From a virus (lineage: Duplodnaviria; Heunggongvirae; Uroviricota; Caudoviricetes), in the IMG/VR virus record IMGVR_UViG_2648501186_000016: a DNA stretch of 10,679 nt; one strand, 5' to 3'. Position 1 is the stretch's first letter, and each line of letters begins with the position of its first letter. Shown in pieces: positions 797-10,679 of the stretch. Made by a program: the position numbers and the translations under genes. The notes below the pieces were generated by a model, which saw only the letters and a program-made list of their open reading frames with translations, did no database searches and was not told the DNA's origin.

Positions 797-1624
797 TCAG
801 GCGGCTGCACCCGCCGGTTTCTCATACTTACTGATAGTGATCTCGACCTTCCCTTTCGGGATAACCGGTCCCCACTCCACCAGCATTCTTTTCACCTGTC
901 TGTCGTCTTCCCACACACCCGCGTGGGTCAGGGCGTCAAACAGCGCCTTGTTATAGTTGTCCAGATCGCGGATCCGGTTACCCATCGCAGATACCCAGCC
1001 CGCATAGCGTTTCACACCTTCCAGCATGGTTTCGGGGTTTACCCCCTCATTCAAACGGGCTTTCCAGGCTTTGAAGGCTGCAGATTTTGAATTGCCACCA
1101 GCACGTTTGGGATATGCCAGCCATGCCTGCTCAAACTCCGGAGAGTATTCCGGTCGGTTTGAACGAACTCGCACAGACTCATCAGCAGATGCACCAACAG
1201 CTATTGGTTCATTGACTGGTTCTTTGACTGGTTCAAAAGAGTGACTGGTTCTGGGTGAATCTCCTGCATTACCCCCTGGTGCAACTCCTGCACTACCTGG
1301 TGAATTTGCTGCACCAGATAGTGAATTATTTGCACTACCCCCTAGTGAATCTCCTGCACCATCCAGATGAAGGAGATAGATATTACTTGAGTTACCTTTT
1401 TCACCTTTCCGGGTGACTTTTTTTACCAGCCCGGACTCACAAAGGGCCGCAATATGATTCATCACAGAACGTTTGCTAATCTCGCACTGGTCAGCAATAT
1501 GCTGGTAGCTGGGCCAGCACTCACCCTGATCGCTGGCATTATCAGCCAGCTTGATCAGAACCAGTTTTCGCAATGGATTACCCACTCGAATTTTCATCGC
1601 TTTAACCATCAGCGCCATACTCAT
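797..1624 (-). CDS. Chimeric ORF: winged-HTH replication-initiator-like N-terminus (aa 1-~216) fused in frame to the C-terminal half of a RusA Holliday-junction resolvase (aa ~217-275); probably a deletion product or pseudogene
   Basis: The N-terminus (PLRKLVLIKLADNASDQGECWPSYQHIADQCEISKRSVMNHIAALCESGLVKKV) is a typical HTH of phage replication/DnaD-like initiators. The central YSPEFEQAWLAYPKRAGGNSKSAAFKAWKARLNEGV block is typical of the same proteins. The tail RIRDLDNYNKALFDALTHAGVWEDDRQVKRMLVEWGPVIPKGKVEITISKYE aligns by eye to E. coli RusA [52 protein letters not shown] (recalled). The first ~65 RusA residues are missing. The start overlaps the upstream stop (ATGA at 1621-1624). Confidence 0.7.
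   Translation of the reverse strand: MSMALMVKAMKIRVGNPLRKLVLIKLADNASDQGECWPSYQHIADQCEISKRSVMNHIAALCESGLVKKVTRKGEKGNSSNIYLLHLDGAGDSLGGSANNSLSGAANSPGSAGVAPGGNAGDSPRTSHSFEPVKEPVNEPIAVGASADESVRVRSNRPEYSPEFEQAWLAYPKRAGGNSKSAAFKAWKARLNEGVNPETMLEGVKRYAGWVSAMGNRIRDLDNYNKALFDALTHAGVWEDDRQVKRMLVEWGPVIPKGKVEITISKYEKPAGAAA
1203..1358. repeat. Two iteron-like direct-repeat arrays inside the replication gene (putative ori)
   Basis: Array A is (T/G)TGACTGGTTC at 1212-1222, 1224-1234 and 1241-1251, with a partial copy at 1203-1210. Array B has five ~15-bp repeats, RGTGAAYYTYYTGCA-like, at 1254-1268, 1278-1292, 1299-1313, 1320-1334 and 1344-1358, spaced 24/21/21/24 bp. They lie in the low-complexity linker (GDSLGGSANNSLSGAANSPGSAGVAPGGNAGDSP), analogous to ori-lambda inside gene O. 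Confidence 0.5.
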
Positions 1625-1845
1625 GCTGCACCTCCGAGATGCTTCATGTTTTTTCCGGAGCGAAAGGTTATAAGCGGCATACTGACGCGGTAATTACGGC
1701 CCAGCGGTTCACAAATCACCTTCTGACATTCACGGTCCACCAGGCTAACACGTAGAACATGTCCTGCAGGTGTGGTGTACCACTGACCCGGACGAGGACA
1801 ACGGAAAGTCTGATTGGTAAACCGTTTGAAAATATTCCGGATCAT
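1621..1845 (-). CDS. Small hypothetical phage protein (74 aa), possibly DUF4222-like
   Basis: ORF in the track. Both ends are translationally coupled (ATGA overlaps at 1842-1845 and 1621-1624) within the early-right operon. I recognise no strong motif. Confidence 0.55.
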   Translation of the reverse strand: MIRNIFKRFTNQTFRCPRPGQWYTTPAGHVLRVSLVDRECQKVICEPLGRNYRVSMPLITFRSGKNMKHLGGAA

Positions 1846-2993
1846 TTGCGCCCCCTTACCTCTGAAGGGTTCAGCGACAAATTTATGAGGCAGGCCAGTG
1901 CCGAAGCATCATTAATATAGTCATACAAGCTAACAGCCAGCGGAGATTCGGCTTTTGCCAACATAGGATAAAGCTGCTGCAGCCAGACCTGATGAATTGA
2001 TGAAATGTAGGAACAGAGAACGCTGGCGTTATGTGCAACGTCGCTCGGTACAGCGGGCTTTGAAAGCTGTTTCTCCATCTGGTTAAAGGCATTGATGTAT
2101 GCCTCTTTGAACTGGGCAGCACGTTTACCCGTGAAACCCATAGCAAGAAACGCAAAGCCGTCGCGGGTTATTTGATAGCAAGGTAGTTTGCGGCCTGTGC
2201 AATCGGTGTAATCACTCACCGAAAAATTGCGGGCAGTGAATGATGCGGAACATTCAAGCGTGCGGATCTTTTTCAGTACATCGTCATGACGTTTGGAGAA
2301 GAAGTTGGCAACAGCCAGGGATGAAGTAACAGCCTGACCATCAACGATGGCAATTTCAGGTTGAGTGAGGGTTGGGATCGTAGCCATGATGGCAGCCTCT
2401 TTGGTGATTTTTAATAACTCACCACCAAGGCTTTCCACGACCTTATTGGTGGTGAGACGTACAGGGGTGGAAATACCGGTCACCAAAGAACCCGGCCCAA
2501 CCGAAGTTGGCCCTGCACGCCCCACCATAATTTGGGCGTAATGCTGCTCATGACACAAAAAAACCGCAAGAGCGCGGTTGTGCGCTTTGGTGAATTCCGG
2601 GTTTCCACGCCCGGCACCCGCTTTATAAGGTGCCTGAACAGTGTAACGTCCCGGAATGGCAGAATCAATGTGCTGGTGGTCCTTCACACTCAACAAAATC
2701 ACGCCTGAATTTCCACAAAGGACTAAAGCATTCATGCGGGTAGTCTTTGCGAAGATAGATAACGCGCTGTGTTTCTGGCTCCCAACGAATAACATGAACA
2801 TAAAGTCCTCTTCCGTCACGAAACCAGCGGTTAAGTTCCTGCACAACTCGCCCCCCACAGTCAGGTAAAGTTCTCTGTGGTTACTAACAGCCAGGTGATT
2901 TGGTAATCTGCATTCATGCCGTAACAACAGGTGTGCAGCGACACTGACCACCAGCTGTTGCGACAAACGGTTATTTGCCGTTAAACTGTTCAT
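1842..2993 (-). CDS. Rha-family phage regulatory protein module (aa 203-383) preceded in frame by a 202-aa region of unknown function
   Basis: The C-terminal part MATIPTLTQPEIAIVDGQAVTSSLAVANFFSKRHDDVLKKIRTL...YQITRDGFAFLAMGFTGKRAAQFKEAYINAFNQME is a full Phage_pRha-type domain. It has its own ATG (2387-2385) and SD (AGAGGCTGCCATC-ATG). The upstream ATG at 2993-2991 overlaps the CII-like stop (ATGA) and has GGAG 10 nt upstream. About 606 nt run stop-free, so the N-terminal region is or was coding. An alternative model is a Rha-only CDS at 1842-2387. Confidence 0.6.
   Translation of the reverse strand: MNSLTANNRLSQQLVVSVAAHLLLRHECRLPNHLAVSNHRELYLTVGGELCRNLTAGFVTEEDFMFMLFVGSQKHSALSIFAKTTRMNALVLCGNSGVILLSVKDHQHIDSAIPGRYTVQAPYKAGAGRGNPEFTKAHNRALAVFLCHEQHYAQIMVGRAGPTSVGPGSLVTGISTPVRLTTNKVVESLGGELLKITKEAAIMATIPTLTQPEIAIVDGQAVTSSLAVANFFSKRHDDVLKKIRTLECSASFTARNFSVSDYTDCTGRKLPCYQITRDGFAFLAMGFTGKRAAQFKEAYINAFNQMEKQLSKPAVPSDVAHNASVLCSYISSIHQVWLQQLYPMLAKAESPLAVSLYDYINDASALACLINLSLNPSEVRGRK
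2555..2579 (-). terminator. Intrinsic-terminator-like hairpin inside the 383-aa ORF
   Basis: The minus strand reads AACCGC-GCTCTT-GCGGTT followed by further Ts (7 consecutive T in total, plus-strand A run 2557-2563). It is preceded by two more hairpins on the same strand: CCGGG/CCCGG at 2597-2614 and GGCACC/GGTGCC at 2613-2634. The stem is modest (6 bp), so function is uncertain. Confidence 0.3.
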
Positions 2994-3541
2994 GCGTTAG
3001 TTTCTCCACAGACACAAAACGCCACGACGCCCGGAGCTGCACACTCGCGGGCGTCACTCTTTTCTGGAGCGCAGAAAATTTTGTAGACCAGTGCCGCATG
3101 CTCCTGGAGCTTCGAAATTGACAGATACAATTCATCATTAATTGCTGTCTGCTCGTGTGGCTCCACTACCCCATCTTCGATTGCCGAACGAATCTGCTTT
3201 GAGTAACTCCCGATCTGTTCGATGACTTCCAGCAGGCGCTGGTTTATATCTGCGTTCTCTACTTCCTCAATTTCAGGAAGCGATACAAACACCCCACCAG
3301 CAGACTGTGCGACAGCATCCGCAATGTAGTGAGTGCCAGCAGCACGCTGTAAAATCATTGCCCATCCCAGCGGGAAAATCTGATCGCCATCTGCACGAAG
3401 GCGGTTGAATAAAGCGTTCTCTGTAACATCCAGCCACTCAGCAGCTTCAGCGTAACCCCCCGGCAACGCCGCGATAGTTTTTCTGACAGCTTTCACGTAC
3501 CACTCAGGCTGTTTTTCCACTTTCCAGTGATGATTACCCAC
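2990..3541 (-). CDS. CII-like phage regulatory protein (phage 186 CII / CP76 family-like)
   Basis: 183-aa ORF with a GTG start at 3541-3539, preceded by AGGAGG plus 6 nt, and overlapping the cro-like stop. The pattern ...TENALFNRLRADGDQIFPLGWAMILQRAAGTHYIADAVAQSAGGVFVSLP...INQRLLEVIEQIGSYSKQIRSAIEDGVVEPHEQTAINDEL... matches my recollection of the 186 CII/CP76 architecture. Its position immediately after cro is as expected. Confidence 0.65.
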   Translation of the reverse strand: MGNHHWKVEKQPEWYVKAVRKTIAALPGGYAEAAEWLDVTENALFNRLRADGDQIFPLGWAMILQRAAGTHYIADAVAQSAGGVFVSLPEIEEVENADINQRLLEVIEQIGSYSKQIRSAIEDGVVEPHEQTAINDELYLSISKLQEHAALVYKIFCAPEKSDARECAAPGVVAFCVCGETNA

Positions 3542-3891: not shown

Positions 3892-4584
3892 ATGAACATA
3901 GGAAACCGAGTCAGACAACTTCGCCAGGCGAAGAACATGAAAATCGCCGATCTCGCTGAAGCAATAGGAGTGGATGCGGCGAATATCTCACGCCTGGAAA
4001 CAGGTAAGCAGAAACAATTCACTGAACAAGCCCTGAGTAATATTGCCAAGAGCTTAGGTGTTGATATTGCTGATCTCTTTACCTCAGACTTCAAAAGTAA
4101 TACTGTATGTAAAAACAGTATTAGTGAGGATGTTGCGCAGGTGAAGGATGTATTCCGTATTGAAATGCTGGATGTCAGTGCCAGTGCGGGAAATGGCCTT
4201 ATCCAGGGCGGTGATGTCATTGATGTGATTCATGCCATTGAATACAGAACTGATAATGCTGTATCGATGTTTGGTGGACGGCCAGCCAATCACATTAAAG
4301 TTATCAACGTTCGTGGGGACAGTATGTGTCCAACCATTGAGCCAGGAGATCTCATCTTCGTTGATGTCAGTATCAATCAGTTTGATGGAGATGGTATCTA
4401 TGTATTTGGTTTTGATGATAAAATTTATGTCAAACGACTGCAAATGATACCTGACAAACTACTGGTGATTTCTGATAACCAGATTTACCGTGAATGGGGA
4501 ATTACCAGCGAAAATGAACACCGGTTTATGGTCTTTGGAAAGGTCTTAATCAGCCAGTCACAAACCCTTAAGCGACACAATTAA
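3892..4584 (+). CDS. cI-like prophage repressor: N-terminal XRE HTH plus C-terminal S24 (LexA-like) autopeptidase
   Basis: HTH: MKIADLAEAIGVDAANISRLETGKQ. Putative Ala-Gly cleavage site in DVSASAGNG. Ser nucleophile in VRGDSMCPTIEPGDLIFV. Lys in IYVKRL. 230 aa, divergent from the cro-like gene. Confidence 0.9.
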   Translation: MNIGNRVRQLRQAKNMKIADLAEAIGVDAANISRLETGKQKQFTEQALSNIAKSLGVDIADLFTSDFKSNTVCKNSISEDVAQVKDVFRIEMLDVSASAGNGLIQGGDVIDVIHAIEYRTDNAVSMFGGRPANHIKVINVRGDSMCPTIEPGDLIFVDVSINQFDGDGIYVFGFDDKIYVKRLQMIPDKLLVISDNQIYREWGITSENEHRFMVFGKVLISQSQTLKRHN

Positions 4585-4604
4585 CCCTTACCTCCTCATC
4601 AATT

Positions 4605-4629
4605 AGCCACCCAAAGGTGGCTTTTCATT
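4605..4629 (+). terminator. Rho-independent terminator after the repressor gene
   Basis: AGCCACC-CAAA-GGTGGCT (7-bp stem, 4605-4622) followed by TTTTCATT, 21 nt after the TAA at 4582-4584. Confidence 0.7.
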
Positions 4630-4639
4630 ACCCTTTAAA

Positions 4640-4692
4640 TTGCATATCTCGCAACAAAAACACTTGCATAATGCGCAACTTCATTTTATCTT
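4640..4692 (+). promoter_or_regulatory. OL-like operator pair with a candidate PL-like promoter
   Basis: Two perfect TTGC-N7-GCAA sites: TTGCATATCTCGCAA (4640-4654) and TTGCATAATGCGCAA (4664-4678), 24 bp apart centre to centre. Candidate promoter TTGCAT (4664-4669), 17-nt spacer, TATCTT (4687-4692). The exact promoter assignment is uncertain. Confidence 0.45.
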
Positions 4693-5086
4693 TCTTTCCA
4701 GACAAACAAACAAGGTACTAACAAAATTTGGTTGTAACACGGCGTATGGCACATGCGTCGTTAGCGGTCTGGGGACGTTAAAGGGGACAATCCACTCCTT
4801 GCTCGGGCAAACAAACCAGGTAGCCGGAATGTGCAAGTCAATGATGATGCTGATAAGACGCCTAACCAGCGTGGCGATTCGGTTTGACGCCTGGGAAGAG
4901 ACCAGGGTGCAACGATGAGGGCATTTATGGAGCCGCGACAAAGTGTGGTGCCGTAACTGGCTAAGTGCTCTCAGCGTTGTGGTAATCCGCGAAATGGCGC
5001 GGCGGTAAGTATGGCGGGGTTACTCTTTCCCCGTTGAGGACACCGGATTGTCAGGTTGACCATACGCCTGAGTGACAACCCCACCA

Positions 5087-5150
5087 CAACAGCCACTGCT
5101 TTGGCGGTACCAGTTTGTACCCTTGCTTCCGGCTGGTACCGCTCTTTTTA
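5087..5150 (+). ncRNA. dicF: DicF-like sRNA including its terminator hairpin
   Basis: TTTGGCGGTACCAGTTTGTACCC...CTGGTACCGCTCTTTTT resembles my recollection of E. coli Qin DicF (TTTCTGGTGACGTTTGGCGGTATCAGTTTTACTCCGTGACTGCTCTGCCGCCCTTTTT). There is a perfect 10-bp stem GCGGTACCAG (5104-5113) / CTGGTACCGC (5133-5142) followed by TCTTTTTA. The context matches dicF: the repressor-controlled leftward operon of a lambdoid prophage. The 5' end is not determinable from sequence. Confidence 0.55.
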
Positions 5151-5286
5151 CAAAACAGAGAAGAGCATCACCGGACGACGGGCTCATAACCCAATCCATC
5201 CGGGCGGCTGCCACCGCAGGTGTTCTTCTCCGTTTTGTGGAGAAACCAACCGACCTTGCAGGGTCGATATGATGAGGAGCAGCAAA

Positions 5287-5649
5287 ATGGCTAGCGAACG
5301 CAGTACTGATGTGCAGGCATTTATTGGGGAGCTGGACGGCGGCGTATTTGAAACCAAAATCGGCGCAGTTCTCAGTGAAGTCGCTTCCGGTGTGATGAAC
5401 ACGAAAACCAAAGGTAAGGTCTCGCTCAACCTGGAAATCGAACCGTTTGATGAGAATCGTGTGAAAATCAAACACAAACTCTCGTATGTTCGCCCGACTA
5501 ACCGCGGGAAAATTTCCGAAGAAGACACCACCGAAACGCCGATGTATGTCAATCGCGGTGGTCGCCTGACTATTCTGCAGGAAGACCAGGGACAATTACT
5601 GACTCTTGCTGGTGAACCTGACGGAAAACTCCGCGCAGCAGGTCATTAA
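5287..5649 (+). CDS. yfdP: YfdP-like prophage protein (120 aa)
   Basis: MASERSTDVQAFIGELDGGVFETKIGAVLSEVASGVMNTKTKGK... with SD GAGGAG 7 nt upstream of ATG 5287. The track ORF (from TTG 5056) extends upstream through non-protein-like sequence that contains the terminator. In-frame ATG 5269 is an alternative start. Synteny with the yfdQ- and yfdR-like genes supports the call. Confidence 0.75.
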   Translation: MASERSTDVQAFIGELDGGVFETKIGAVLSEVASGVMNTKTKGKVSLNLEIEPFDENRVKIKHKLSYVRPTNRGKISEEDTTETPMYVNRGGRLTILQEDQGQLLTLAGEPDGKLRAAGH

Positions 5650-7237: not shown

Positions 7238-7432
7238 ATGAACAACTTAATGACAACTAAACAGGTCGCCGACTTCTGTGGTGTTTCAATATCAACAGTG
7301 CTTCGCTGGAACAGCATAAACCATAGAACAGGTAAGAAATATAGACCAGACTTTCCTGATCCTGATATAAAATCCTGTCCCAATAAATGGGCATCACACA
7401 AGATTTATAGGTTTGCGGGTATTATCGAATAA
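7238..7432 (+). CDS. AlpA/Xis-type small HTH DNA-binding protein (probable excisionase/RDF), 64 aa
   Basis: MNNLMTTKQVADFCGVSISTVLRWNS...RPDFPDPDIKSCPNKWASHKIYRF fits the AlpA/excisionase pattern (HTH, then FP.P, then a conserved W). SD GGAGGGG precedes ATG 7238. The longer track ORF (7049) overlaps the yfdR-like gene and is rejected. Confidence 0.7.
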   Translation: MNNLMTTKQVADFCGVSISTVLRWNSINHRTGKKYRPDFPDPDIKSCPNKWASHKIYRFAGIIE

Positions 7433-8164: not shown

Positions 8165-9184
8165 ATGACTTCTGAAAGCAACAGAATTGGGAAGATGGGT
8201 GTAAACTACATAGAAGGTGTATTGACAAGATGGGGATGGGGATATCAATCAATTTCGCAAGAAAATGATGATGGGTTTGATGGCTTAATATATATAAGAT
8301 CTAAACGATTTGAGGCGAAAGATAAAGAAAACCGGAGTAAACAATCTTGGGAGTTCACTGGTGGGTTGATTCATGTACAAGTAAAAAGTGGAGATACATA
8401 CATTAGTAGTCGTAATAAAGATGAAATAAGGATCAAAATAAAAAACCTCAATGAAAAGAAGAAAATATGGTCTAGATCGTCTATTCCATGCATACTTGTA
8501 TTTGTTTTTTGGGATCATAATGAAGTTGAGTATTCCTACTGGGCTGATCTTAAATCTGAATTAACTTATTGTGATAACAGTAGTACGCTAATAAAAATCC
8601 CCTTAAAAAATAGATTTATGAGATCCCAAGAGTGTAAGGGGCCTTTAAGACGACTTGCAAGGGTATCGGCCAACTATGCAGATAAGCCGCTGATAGATTT
8701 ATCAAAATTTGACTCATTAAGTGGTAAGCTACCTACAAGTCTAAACAGTAACCTAAATTGTTCTTTGAAAAAGAAAGGTATTGAATTCTATCAGAAATGG
8801 CGATTAATTGGGGCTACAAACCCTTATTTTGGTCCTGTTCTAATAAACAGAACTGGTTGGAGTCATATAACTCGACGAAATCGCCCAATAGCAAGAATTG
8901 AAGCAAGCTTTAATTTGTTACCTTTAGCAGCAAGAATTATAAATGATGTATCTACATGGCGAATGTTAACACCCGTACGACGGTATGATAATAGAAAGGA
9001 TGGTTATGTTTGCTTTATAGATTTCGTTGGGTTAACAGCCAAAGTGAATTTAAAGAATCGCAACTCATCAGAAGTTATGGTTGTGTTAAAAAGGGAGAGG
9101 AGGTATAAACAGGGTGAAGACTGTTCCTCTGCGAAAACAAGATTATGGTTTTACACTGTTTATGAACCTGGAAGAGGAAAATAA
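8165..9184 (+). CDS. Cargo protein: N-terminal DUF4365-like PD-(D/E)xK nuclease-fold domain plus an unrecognised ~200-aa C-terminal domain
   Basis: 339-aa ORF with SD GAGGG 6 nt upstream. N-terminal motifs are GVNYIEGVL (E), NDDGFDGLIYI (D) and GLIHVQVKSG (QxK), followed by SIPCILVFVFWD...YSYWADL. This matches the DUF4365 pattern as I recall it. The gene is visibly much more AT-rich than its neighbours and sits between the xis-like gene and int. Confidence 0.75.
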   Translation: MTSESNRIGKMGVNYIEGVLTRWGWGYQSISQENDDGFDGLIYIRSKRFEAKDKENRSKQSWEFTGGLIHVQVKSGDTYISSRNKDEIRIKIKNLNEKKKIWSRSSIPCILVFVFWDHNEVEYSYWADLKSELTYCDNSSTLIKIPLKNRFMRSQECKGPLRRLARVSANYADKPLIDLSKFDSLSGKLPTSLNSNLNCSLKKKGIEFYQKWRLIGATNPYFGPVLINRTGWSHITRRNRPIARIEASFNLLPLAARIINDVSTWRMLTPVRRYDNRKDGYVCFIDFVGLTAKVNLKNRNSSEVMVVLKRERRYKQGEDCSSAKTRLWFYTVYEPGRGK

Positions 9185-9455: not shown

Positions 9456-10679
9456 TCAGTTAGAGTCTGAGATAGTACAAGTAATGATCGATTCAACTCT
9501 CTCCCACCATGCCTGGTAGGCTTTACGCTGTTCTTCTAGATAATCGCTCTTATCATAAACTTGCCATACCCCTGGCAGTTTATGGCCGAGCATTATTTCT
9601 GCAATATGAGGCGCAGTAAGATCAGAAAAGTTTGTTCGTGCTGTTCGCCTCAAATCATGAAGAGACCAATGAGGGAATTGATACCCCAAACGCCGCCATG
9701 CGTACTGCATTAAATTGTAAGGCAGCGACTGCAATGATGTTCGTCCAACGGGTTCCCTGCTTCCTTCCTTAGTAAAAAGCATATCGGAACCATTGTTCAT
9801 AGAGATAACGTACTTTATAAGCTCTTCAACCGGTTCAATAATGGGGCGCTTTAGCGGTTCGCCTGTTATATCCCCTGTCTTATGTCGTTCTGGCGGTACA
9901 GTCCATACCTTATTAATGAAATCAAAATCATCCACCCTAGCGGTAATTAGCTCTGAACTACGGCAGCCAAAATGCAGCAATAGTTTAATGAAGGCCCGGT
10001 ATTTAGGAACCATTCGAGAACCATCGATCGCAGCATAAAGGATTTTAATTTCATCATGTGTCAGAAACCGTTTCTTCTGACCTTTACGGATATCCATATC
10101 TTTACCCGTGATATCCGACAGCGGGCGGGTTTCAATGAGCTTTCTCTTATAGGCCCAGACATGGGCCTGCTTTGCGTTAATTAGCAATCGGTCTGCTATT
10201 GCTGGAGTCTTAGTGCTAAGAGGCTCTAAGACTTCTAACCAATCATGCAATGTAGCTGCATCGTGAGGGATACTCCCGATTTTAGAGAACAGGTGCAGCT
10301 CAAACGAGCGGAGTATCTGTTCAGAACCTTTTTTATTTTTTACACAATATGCTTCATACCAGGCACGGATCACAGACTCTACCGTCATGGCTTCAGTAGC
10401 TTTTCGTTTTTCAGCCTGCTTGACCAATCGTGGATTACGGTTTGACTCGAGTTCACCACGAAGACGGAGAACTTCTTCTCTGGCCTCTTTTAATCCAGTT
10501 GCCGGGTAAGTTCCGATATCAAGACGCTCACCTTTCCCTGCCCATTGATAACGATATTGGAACACTACGCGACCTTTCGGTGATACTCTGACAGACAGAC
10601 CATCACGATCGGATTTAACCAAAACCTTATCACGTTCCTTTCCAACGACTGAACGCAACCACGCATCAGACAGCGCCAT
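9456..10679 (-). CDS. int: Tyrosine recombinase/integrase, P4/CP4-57 family (DUF4102 N-terminal arm-binding domain)
   Basis: 407 aa. N-terminus: MALSDAWLRSV...DGLSVRVSPKGRVVFQYRYQWAGKGERLDIGTYPATGLKEAREE. Catalytic motifs: HFGCRSSEL (Arg), WSLHDLRRTART (H-x-x-R), MLGHK...VYDKSDY (His, Tyr). The ATG is the last codon of the window, so attachment-site or tRNA sequence would lie beyond base 10679. Confidence 0.95.
   Translation of the reverse strand: MALSDAWLRSVVGKERDKVLVKSDRDGLSVRVSPKGRVVFQYRYQWAGKGERLDIGTYPATGLKEAREEVLRLRGELESNRNPRLVKQAEKRKATEAMTVESVIRAWYEAYCVKNKKGSEQILRSFELHLFSKIGSIPHDAATLHDWLEVLEPLSTKTPAIADRLLINAKQAHVWAYKRKLIETRPLSDITGKDMDIRKGQKKRFLTHDEIKILYAAIDGSRMVPKYRAFIKLLLHFGCRSSELITARVDDFDFINKVWTVPPERHKTGDITGEPLKRPIIEPVEELIKYVISMNNGSDMLFTKEGSREPVGRTSLQSLPYNLMQYAWRRLGYQFPHWSLHDLRRTARTNFSDLTAPHIAEIMLGHKLPGVWQVYDKSDYLEEQRKAYQAWWERVESIITCTISDSN

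Follow-up and report, generated by a model that had tools for sequence, protein, structure and literature searches.

The open reading frame (ORF) at positions 797..1624 on the minus strand of IMG/VR record IMGVR_UViG_2648501186_000016—a stretch of 10,679 nucleotides of Caudoviricetes DNA, hereafter the window—joins the front of a replication-initiator gene (rep) to the end of rusA, the gene for the Holliday-junction resolvase RusA. We are highly confident that this rep::rusA ORF is a deletion scar: in an SfV/mEp460-type lambdoid prophage, inserted at yjjG/prfC in a porcine enterotoxigenic Escherichia coli (ETEC), rep codon 216 was joined to rusA codon 71 through the tetranucleotide TAAC, and the rusA end of the join is a recurrent deletion hotspot. 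The fusion itself is ordinary prophage decay and matters little. The hotspot is the only part that should surprise a specialist—at one dinucleotide, TA, in a conserved phage gene, dozens of deletions have ended independently, taking with them replication, immunity, lysis, or virion genes.

The junction and its intact relatives

The chimeric ORF comprises 275 codons plus a stop, and it has two-domain matches to both Pfam and PHROGs profiles. Its rep-derived part (977..1624, minus strand) represents codons 1–216 of a 272-codon replication-initiator gene of the SfV orf39/mEp460 gp43 family, with HTH_36 at residues 17–67 (window 1424..1576; Pfam, E 1.8e-11) and the replication initiation protein phrog_270 at residues 3–217 (PHROGs, 5.6e-70). 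The RusA-derived part (797..976, minus strand) supplies codons 71–129 of the 129-codon rusA and its stop; Pfam RusA is matched at residues 214–264, over profile positions 76–123 of 124 only (E 1.8e-10), and RusA-like phrog_34 at residues 216–273 (PHROGs, 4.8e-26). The initial annotation, made from the letters alone, had described an initiator-type front passing at about codon 216/217 into the last ~58 residues of RusA, and had allowed that the tail might prove to have no profile similarity to RusA. Both domains are as described; the tail has 59 residues and, searched alone, matches Pfam RusA at E 4.6e-11; the segment 797..976 corresponds to profile positions 80–123 of 124.

The window is the reverse complement of positions 4060297-4070975 of the E. 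coli ETEC4073 chromosome (NZ_CP122660.1), identical at 10,679/10,679 bases. A 1.3-kb query around the ORF has matches in 2,321 of 5,426 complete E. coli genomes and is unbroken in two only, ETEC4073 and ETEC1706 (both porcine); a further 26 genomes match over 80% or more of the query, with extra DNA breaking up the match. A 140-bp junction probe places this junction, among complete E. coli genomes, in the same two. The corresponding region of the relative ST70 holds rep (272 aa), a truncated perC-like gene, a gene for a LexA DNA-binding domain (LexA-DBD), and rusA (129 aa). Anchored on the left, the match to ST70 extends as far as ORF nt 648; anchored on the right, it reaches back to nt 645. 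This puts the switch at codons 216 (AAC) and 217 (CGG), with 3 mismatches per 648 nt in the rep part and 1 difference per 180 in the RusA part.

Anchored matches and the junction alignment thus agree on a 4-bp microhomology, TAAC (GTTA on the plus strand), at window 977..980 on the minus strand, which contains the hotspot TA. The switch had been predicted at ~975–980, with the advice to look for microhomology at ~970–985; the mapping confirms the first and the second turned up this TAAC. It stands at both parental endpoints, as GGGTAAC in rep and GGATAAC in rusA, and one copy is left in the window, the pattern of a microhomology-mediated deletion, in which a direct repeat lies at both ends and one copy is kept.

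The DNA lost amounts to 1,032 bp (3 x 344) in comparison with ST70 and to 1,844 bp in comparison with SfV and mEp460. The deletion length being a multiple of three, the rep and rusA frames were fused, and intact relatives do carry the two genes separately, as the proposal of an in-frame deletion implied. The full module of SfV and mEp460 reads rep, perC-like (orf40), dam, LexA-DBD (orf42), rusA; removed by the deletion are 56 rep codons, the perC-like gene, dam, the LexA-DBD gene, and 70 rusA codons. The functional temperate phages SfV (NC_003444, orf39-orf43) and mEp460 (NC_019716, gp43-gp47) resemble the window in having 96–99% DNA identity on both sides of the junction and in the genes that surround it (cro, cII-like CP76, Rha/Ash, a 74-78-aa gene, rep ... 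rusA, KilA-N, DUF968/HNH, and Q). They differ in that the phages hold a full 272-aa rep, perC-like, dam, LexA-DBD, and a full 129-aa rusA, whereas the window is without the 1,844 bp.

The whole rep-rusA interval is deletion-prone. Even the 'intact' relatives have further deletions in it, of 812 bp between 16-nt imperfect repeats CAGGCGGAAAAACTGG in ST70 and of 396 and 323 bp in A17, and CFS3273 has a 1,137-bp perC::rusA deletion; these interval deletions are located at L002 13092..13424, L004 4092..4190 and ~4843, and L005 4403..4429.

Complete genomes show three junction types at the rusA breakpoint—that of the window, that of AB56 (rep nt ~773), and that of EC130 (rep nt ~119)—and the latter two each create a TAA stop. 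The window junction could have arisen from the AB56 type in two steps, first a deletion from rep nt ~773 to the hotspot that made GTTAAC, then a 127-bp deletion between GGTAAC and GTTAAC (5/6 matching) that restored the frame. The AB56 junction does exist, in one complete genome and one IMG/VR contig, and P0003 carries a window-type junction on an AB56-like single-nucleotide polymorphism (SNP) background and in an AB56-like context. The window flanks, however, are nearest to ST70 (3/648 and 1/180 differences) versus ~10 and 4-5 differences for AB56, and a single step via TAAC (GGNTAAC, 6/7) is simpler. We regard the two-step route as improbable, and both routes use the same hotspot anyway.

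Far less likely still is the large internal deletion of the initial annotation, by which a helicase-loader gene and several nin genes were lost as in lambda. The gene order of lambda is O-P-nin, and the window does lack any helicase or loader gene. Against this, the intervals between initiator and rusA in SfV, mEp460, ST70, and A17 hold only perC-like, dam, and lexA-DBD genes, and their early-right operons are free of a loader; neither these four intervals nor the annotated 37-kb SfV genome yielded a helicase or helicase-loader gene. The loss was moreover of only 1.0-1.8 kb (1,032-1,844 bp), so that neither the size of the deletion nor the content ascribed to it stands.

A recurrent deletion endpoint in rusA

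The crossover of ~40 distinct deletion junctions in related prophages, leftward and rightward together, is the central TA of a rusA quasi-palindrome, TCCGGA-TA-ACCGGA. That this hotspot is recurrent, two-sided, and precise to the dinucleotide is well supported; no description of a rusA deletion hotspot was found in the searchable literature. The intact site lies at L002 13945..13965 and L007 6481..6501, and in the SfV allele, TAACAGGATCC, the right arm is broken. What survives in the window is the right half, TA-ACCGGATCCGC, at 966..980 on the minus strand, with an exact match to TAACCGGATCCG at 969..980 and the same right flank in 9 junction loci. The strings GTTGTTTCCTCCGGATA and TAACCGGATCCGCGATC can be used to count occurrences of the hotspot in assemblies.

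Leftward deletions were collected in a protein search with the 59-aa RusA tail, which gave 13 further left-partner chimeras that switch at ...N|RIRDLDN. Their left partners include Rep at aa 16 and aa 29, Cro at aa 41, the cII-like gene, the 74/78-aa gene, DUF4222, and dam, as well as two ORFs in the cI-yfdP region and an alternative GntR-type rep gene. The DNA of nine left-partner loci reads N-TAAC|CGGATCC in 9/9, and the gene contexts are those of plain collinear deletions, from 0.4 to >4.5 kb in length.

For the other side, a search with the 70-aa RusA head found ~24 right-partner chimeras that retain ...VLFPPD; because the next codon starts with A in every case, the retained DNA is ...CCGGATA. 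Downstream of the crossover they continue into KilA-N, DUF968, Q, a DNA methylase, portal, baseplate, a terminase-like tail, or tail-fibre/J-like tails, the last three classes (from baseplate on) being putative assignments from motifs. These chimeras are probably the products of rightward deletions reaching ~25 kb.

The partner sites themselves are not random TA dinucleotides. Mapped to parental DNA, 23 of them have TA in 23/23 cases; TA alone is shared in 12, and 3-6 nt spanning TA in the rest. To the left of TA, CCGG is overrepresented at -5 to -2 among the partners of either deletion class, giving a resemblance to CCGGNTA, with a mean of 3.26/8 matches versus 2.02 at 1,998 control TA sites (0/50,000 resamples), and the right flank is similar only weakly (P = 0.03). 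Additionally, three SNP backgrounds and two upstream gene contexts carry the window-type TAAC junction, with discriminating SNPs as near as 28 nt to its left, which suggests that it arose recurrently and was not inherited from one event.

Two points detract from this picture. Hotspot junctions are rare in unbiased IMG/VR contigs (2/119 on the right side, 0/120 on the left), and the protein searches returned short proteins only (none longer than ~1.76 times the query), which biases the junction positions that can be detected. Owing to this short-protein return, counts of hotspot and non-hotspot junctions are approximate; with that proviso, rusA junctions outside the hotspot number ~10-12 (P0005, P0153, P0167, P0178, P0234, P0236, P0246, CFS3273, and others).

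Some rusA joins stand apart from these. A second, looser cluster lies just after ...VEQLRRL(P), at rusA codons ~50-53 (L002 ~13895..13910; P0264, P0276, P0277, P0280, and P0281), which may be another preferred breakpoint. In P0264 and P0291 the RusA N-terminal part is joined to same-strand sequence that normally lies upstream—the antisense-yfdP region (window 5184..5552, minus strand) and the Rha C-terminus (1842..~2030, minus strand)—which implies duplication or inter-prophage rearrangement, not simple deletion. P0203, a RusA N-terminal part followed by RSEERRVGKECRSRWSPYH, looks like read-through into what we take to be an Illumina adapter from after ...CCGGAT-A, and thus like adapter contamination in a deposited assembly with no biological junction.

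If confirmed, the hotspot would offer a workable natural setting in which to study illegitimate recombination in E. coli, with a fixed site, many partners, both directions, and defined sequence preferences, and it would account in part for the way the abundant SfV/mEp460-type prophage family gets 'grounded'.

The fused product and the prophage around it

The RusA fragment keeps the catalytic residues of the enzyme and loses its N-terminal half. A phmmer search against the PDB pairs residues 216-266 of the fusion with residues 66-116 of E. coli RusA (1Q8R; 4e-8), with R219/D220/D222/N223/K226/D240/D241 in the places of RusA R69/D70/D72/N73/K76/D90/D91. On the minus strand of the window D220 is encoded at 965..967, D222 at 959..961, K226 at 947..949, and D240/D241 at 902..907; the initial annotation was right about the active-site aspartates, these four aligning to D70, D72, and D90/D91 of 1Q8R. 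The RusA residues R69, D70, D72, N73, K76, D90, and D91 take part in metal binding, catalysis, and DNA binding in the RusA-DNA complex (PMC1636454), and the fusion keeps all of them.

A complete RusA, in contrast (Pfam PF05866, ~120-130 aa with N-terminal strands and helix alpha1), it is not. The N-terminal half is gone, as had been noted, but the loss measures 70 of the 129 residues of the phage RusA (70/129 codons), not ~65. Helix alpha1 of RusA moves together with alpha2 at the dimer interface (PMC1636454), and a RusA fragment without its 70 N-terminal residues is unlikely to fold; Holliday-junction cleavage as a homodimer is a predicted loss of the fusion. Hence the likeness to E. coli RusA (1Q8R, 2H8C) lies in residues 66-116, with R69, D70, D72, N73, K76, D90, and D91 conserved, and the difference in the absence of residues 1-65, the attachment of the fragment to an unrelated protein, and folding and dimerisation that are not to be expected.

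The Rep part retains the winged-helix domain, an iteron-bearing linker, and three C-terminal helices, and it stops at residue 216, without the Rep tail motif GTQFVKQAxTFFGPDRHFEExW. In 18 homologues, down to 66% identity, the tail block at residues 218-239, GTQ(F/Y)VKQAxxFFGPD(R/K)HFExxW, is invariant or nearly so; the most conserved positions of the C-terminal half of Rep are G218 T219 Q220 .. F228 F229 G230 P231 D232. H234 F235. E237. W239. The profile of phrog_1701 (DnaD-like helicase loader) matches intact Rep at residues 147-249 and so spans the breakpoint. No PDB relative of Rep was found by sequence search. The AlphaFold model of intact Rep has a mean predicted local distance difference test score (pLDDT) of 57, with a winged helix-turn-helix fold in residues 1-90 (pLDDT 74-85) and helices 162-214 also folded.

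Most likely, then, both Rep and RusA activities would be lost in the fusion product. Tempering this, AlphaFold confidence is low for intact Rep residues 218-272, which is why the case for loss of Rep function is one of conservation and not of fold disruption. The initial annotation called the prophage replication-defective; this is a plausible inference, because the invariant C-terminal Rep motif is lost.

The rep remnant may also preserve an origin. Five iteron-like direct repeats of 21-24 bp occupy 1251..1361, in the linker-coding region of rep (repeat search family D1; Tandem Repeats Finder (TRF) period 21-24, 4.6 copies), and are adjoined by a second set of 11-12-nt direct repeats, TGACTGGTTCT, at 1205..1252 (families D3 and D4; TRF period 12). 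The two sets together probably form a replication origin that is retained in the fusion; the lambda ori is located inside gene O. The number of iteron-like repeats differs between prophages (P0017, P0006, P0034), giving Rep of 272, 294, 296, and 302 aa, a pattern that slippage of the repeats in the putative origin could produce. The SfV orf39/PHROG 270 family is predicted to consist of replication initiators, and it resembles the O-type initiators of lambda in its N-terminal DNA-binding domain, its iteron-like repeats within the gene, and its C-terminal part, to which recruitment of the replication machinery is presumptively assigned. It differs from them in that SfV orf39-type Rep has an HTH_36 fold with a weak DnaD_N match, and its lineage has no separate P-like loader.

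As an architecture, HTH_36 plus RusA is rare. It forms five one-member clusters among 5,318 homologues in a 5.8-billion-cluster library—three with the window junction, one with the window protein rearranged near its C-terminal end, and one with a different in-frame rep::rusA fusion—and a single cluster of the stand-alone 272-aa Rep has 2,852 members. The fusion was not found among 71 phage records matching the region, and the same domain order is therefore not widespread in functional phages, a possibility that the initial annotation had set against itself. Because it is so rare (five tiny clusters versus thousands of stand-alone Rep), the fusion is decay and not a native architecture.

The opposite view would make the ORF a native, selected two-domain protein, either a Rep module tethering a RusA fragment or a dominant-negative origin binder that blocks superinfecting relatives. 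It is in frame, it has the winged helix-turn-helix, the iterons, and all RusA catalytic residues, and its identical junction stands on three sequence backgrounds. However, there are only the five one-member clusters, sister junctions at the same site (AB56, EC130) are out of frame and end in TAA, and 70 N-terminal RusA residues, including helix alpha1, are gone. By lambdoid analogy, a gene of the early-right operon downstream of cro should be silent in the lysogen, and the recurrence of the junction is accounted for by the hotspot together with the best local microhomology. We therefore give selection for such a protein hardly any weight. An assembly or sequencing artefact joining two repeat-containing genes is scarcely credible: the rusA 3' half is multi-copy, at up to 7 places per genome, and the related 'chimera' P0203 looks like adapter read-through, but two complete genomes and two independent Logan assemblies have exactly this junction, the partners share only 2-6 nt, far under assembler k-mers, and whole genes are gone in a collinear context.

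A protein identical to the fusion is present in NCBI nr (P0001) and is named there as RusA resolvase, and the Prokaryotic Genome Annotation Pipeline (PGAP) annotates the locus as a rep pseudogene and a 62-aa RusA ORF. The in-frame two-domain ORF, a deletion scar, should be annotated neither as a RusA resolvase nor as a new architecture.

The window is the left half of the prophage between yjjG and prfC. Its gene order is int (9456..10679, minus strand), a DUF4365 gene, yfdR/yfdQ/yfdP-like early-left genes, the S24 repressor gene cI (3892..4584, plus strand), cro, the CP76 cII-like gene, Ash/Rha, the 74-aa gene, the rep::rusA ORF, and, listed last, the KilA-N gene. The ETEC4073 prophage as a whole is a ~23-kb remnant without portal, head, and tail genes; its terminase large-subunit gene is truncated, with a tail-fibre assembly gene directly next to it (L001 21305..24329/L009 19869..22893, outside the window), a join that marks a second, much larger deletion. 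The description of a cryptic prophage with an intact immunity switch, int, and xis therefore holds in part. It is a remnant, but the main cause is the truncated terminase and the absent portal/head/tail genes, not the rep fusion; the cI, cro, cII-like, and int ORFs are intact, but for xis there is only a 64-aa ORF without RefSeq annotation (MNNLMTTKQVADFCGVS..., window 7238..7432, plus strand), the only xis candidate, whose HTH_17 match is sub-threshold (E 9e-4).

Several other features of the window deserve mention. The 339-aa DUF4365 protein (8165..9184, plus strand) lies between int and the early-left operon, and as the ST70 cargo differs at that position, the position has the look of a slot for variable moron or possibly defence genes. 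Between cI and yfdP, in the position of lambda pL/N, ~700 bp (4585..5286) are without an annotated gene; the partner sites of deletions P0137 and P0124 lie within this stretch or adjoin it. A 59-aa DUF4222 ORF (2665..2844, minus strand; Pfam E 9.5e-14, above the cut-off) lies in another frame inside the annotated 383-aa Ash/Rha ORF (1842..2993). Since the Ash and Rha domains begin only at residue 117, the latter is probably over-extended and the DUF4222 gene missed by PGAP. Four Chi sequences, GCTGGTGG, all on the minus strand, lie at 877..884, 1095..1102, 2948..2955, and 3294..3301, inside a 2.5-kb stretch of the early-right operon; ST70 reads GCTGGTTG at the place of the one that is ~95 nt downstream of the rep::rusA junction. 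Given the polarity of Chi, protection of the right end by these sequences is rejected on their orientation.

Mechanism of the hotspot and known systems

The hotspot is most likely the product of microhomology-guided joining of a 3' end, ...CCGGNTA. In rightward deletions this top-strand 3' end would take off from the hotspot, and in leftward deletions it would land on it. Either replication template switching at a small hairpin or a site-specific break repaired by end-joining could bring this about; annealing of the 3' end, whether in template switching or in polymerase-assisted microhomology end-joining, fits because the CCGGNTA similarity sits 5' of TA whichever flank is retained. The site can form a hairpin, with a 5-bp stem and a 4-nt loop that holds TA. 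The fold is weak (free energy -5 kcal/mol, z about -1.7 to -1.9) and insignificant versus shuffles, and many such hairpins exist; we have accordingly rejected the hairpin as a sufficient cause.

A stronger claim can be made, though we advance it tentatively and think it rather less probable than not: that true site-specific recombination or breakage takes place at TCCGGA-TA-ACCGGA, through an enzyme or a structure-specific replication event that joins this sequence at TA to CCGGNTA-like sites up to tens of kb off in either direction. The sequence would then be a major undescribed driver of decay in SfV/mEp460-type E. coli prophages, with the rep::rusA fusion as one recurrent product.

A rival mechanism is an insertion sequence (IS) with a 2-bp (TA) target duplication, which would insert at the rusA palindrome time and again and later be excised together with flanking DNA on one side, in an IEE/transposase-type process with microhomology-mediated end joining (MMEJ); one endpoint would be fixed, the other variable, and no IS would be left. 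IEE-dependent IS excision does give adjacent deletions, from a few nt to >40 kb, with microhomology joining (PMC9943667), IS30 makes 2-bp duplications and favours hot-spot sequences (PMC9333248), and the window comes from a porcine ETEC. Yet no IS was found at the rusA hotspot in 119 + 120 IMG/VR contigs (239 in all) or in 12 junction loci, a small sample skewed to intact prophages, and the likeness of partner left flanks to the hotspot left flank in both deletion classes is not predicted if an IS end adjoined the retained TA. IS30 was rejected as the agent: its inverted repeats are not known to resemble the site. We consider an IS origin unlikely.

We are equally doubtful of a dyad-symmetric enzyme—serine-recombinase-like, transposase-like, or a site-specific nuclease leaving TA overhangs—that acts on TCCGGA-TA-ACCGGA and on degenerate CCGGNTA sites and exchanges strands at the central TA. 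In its favour, TA is common to 23/23 mapped partners, the crossover is nucleotide-precise in both directions, and the site is a quasi-palindrome centred on TA; in the Cin system, identity of the central dinucleotide selects quasi-sites. But no candidate enzyme or cognate recombinase was identified, no inversion products were recognised among the junctions, and the strong left-flank and weak right-flank similarity (P = 0.03) is an asymmetry that fits 3'-end annealing better than symmetric protein recognition. Resemblances of the site to a repetitive extragenic palindromic (REP) arm, GCCGGATAAGGCG, a DnaA-box-like sequence, TTATCCGGA, a CRISPR repeat tail, GGATAAACCG, Hin/Gin sites, and the RusA (CC) and RuvC cleavage consensus sequences were set aside: none of them is known to agree with a crossover at TA, and a shared 8-mer could arise by chance.

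Microhomology-guided joining of a 3' end, our preferred reading, can finally be set beside known deletion systems. By outcome, the nearest known process is the excision of an IS with deletion of adjacent DNA (IEE/MMEJ; PMC9943667), which is alike in having one endpoint fixed to the nucleotide and one variable, at distances of a few nt up to tens of kb, and in its short microhomology, its two directions, and the absence of any remaining IS. It is different in that no IS was seen at the rusA site, and in that the partner sites resemble the hotspot's own flank. The deletion hotspots of lacI (Albertini, Glickman, Ripley) are reportedly guided by short repeats or quasi-palindromes, and on that account share with the rusA site recurrent deletions guided by short imperfect repeats beside a small palindrome. 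In lacI, however, two fixed repeats are said to be joined, whereas the rusA site joins at least 23 partners up to ~25 kb to either side, always at the same dinucleotide.

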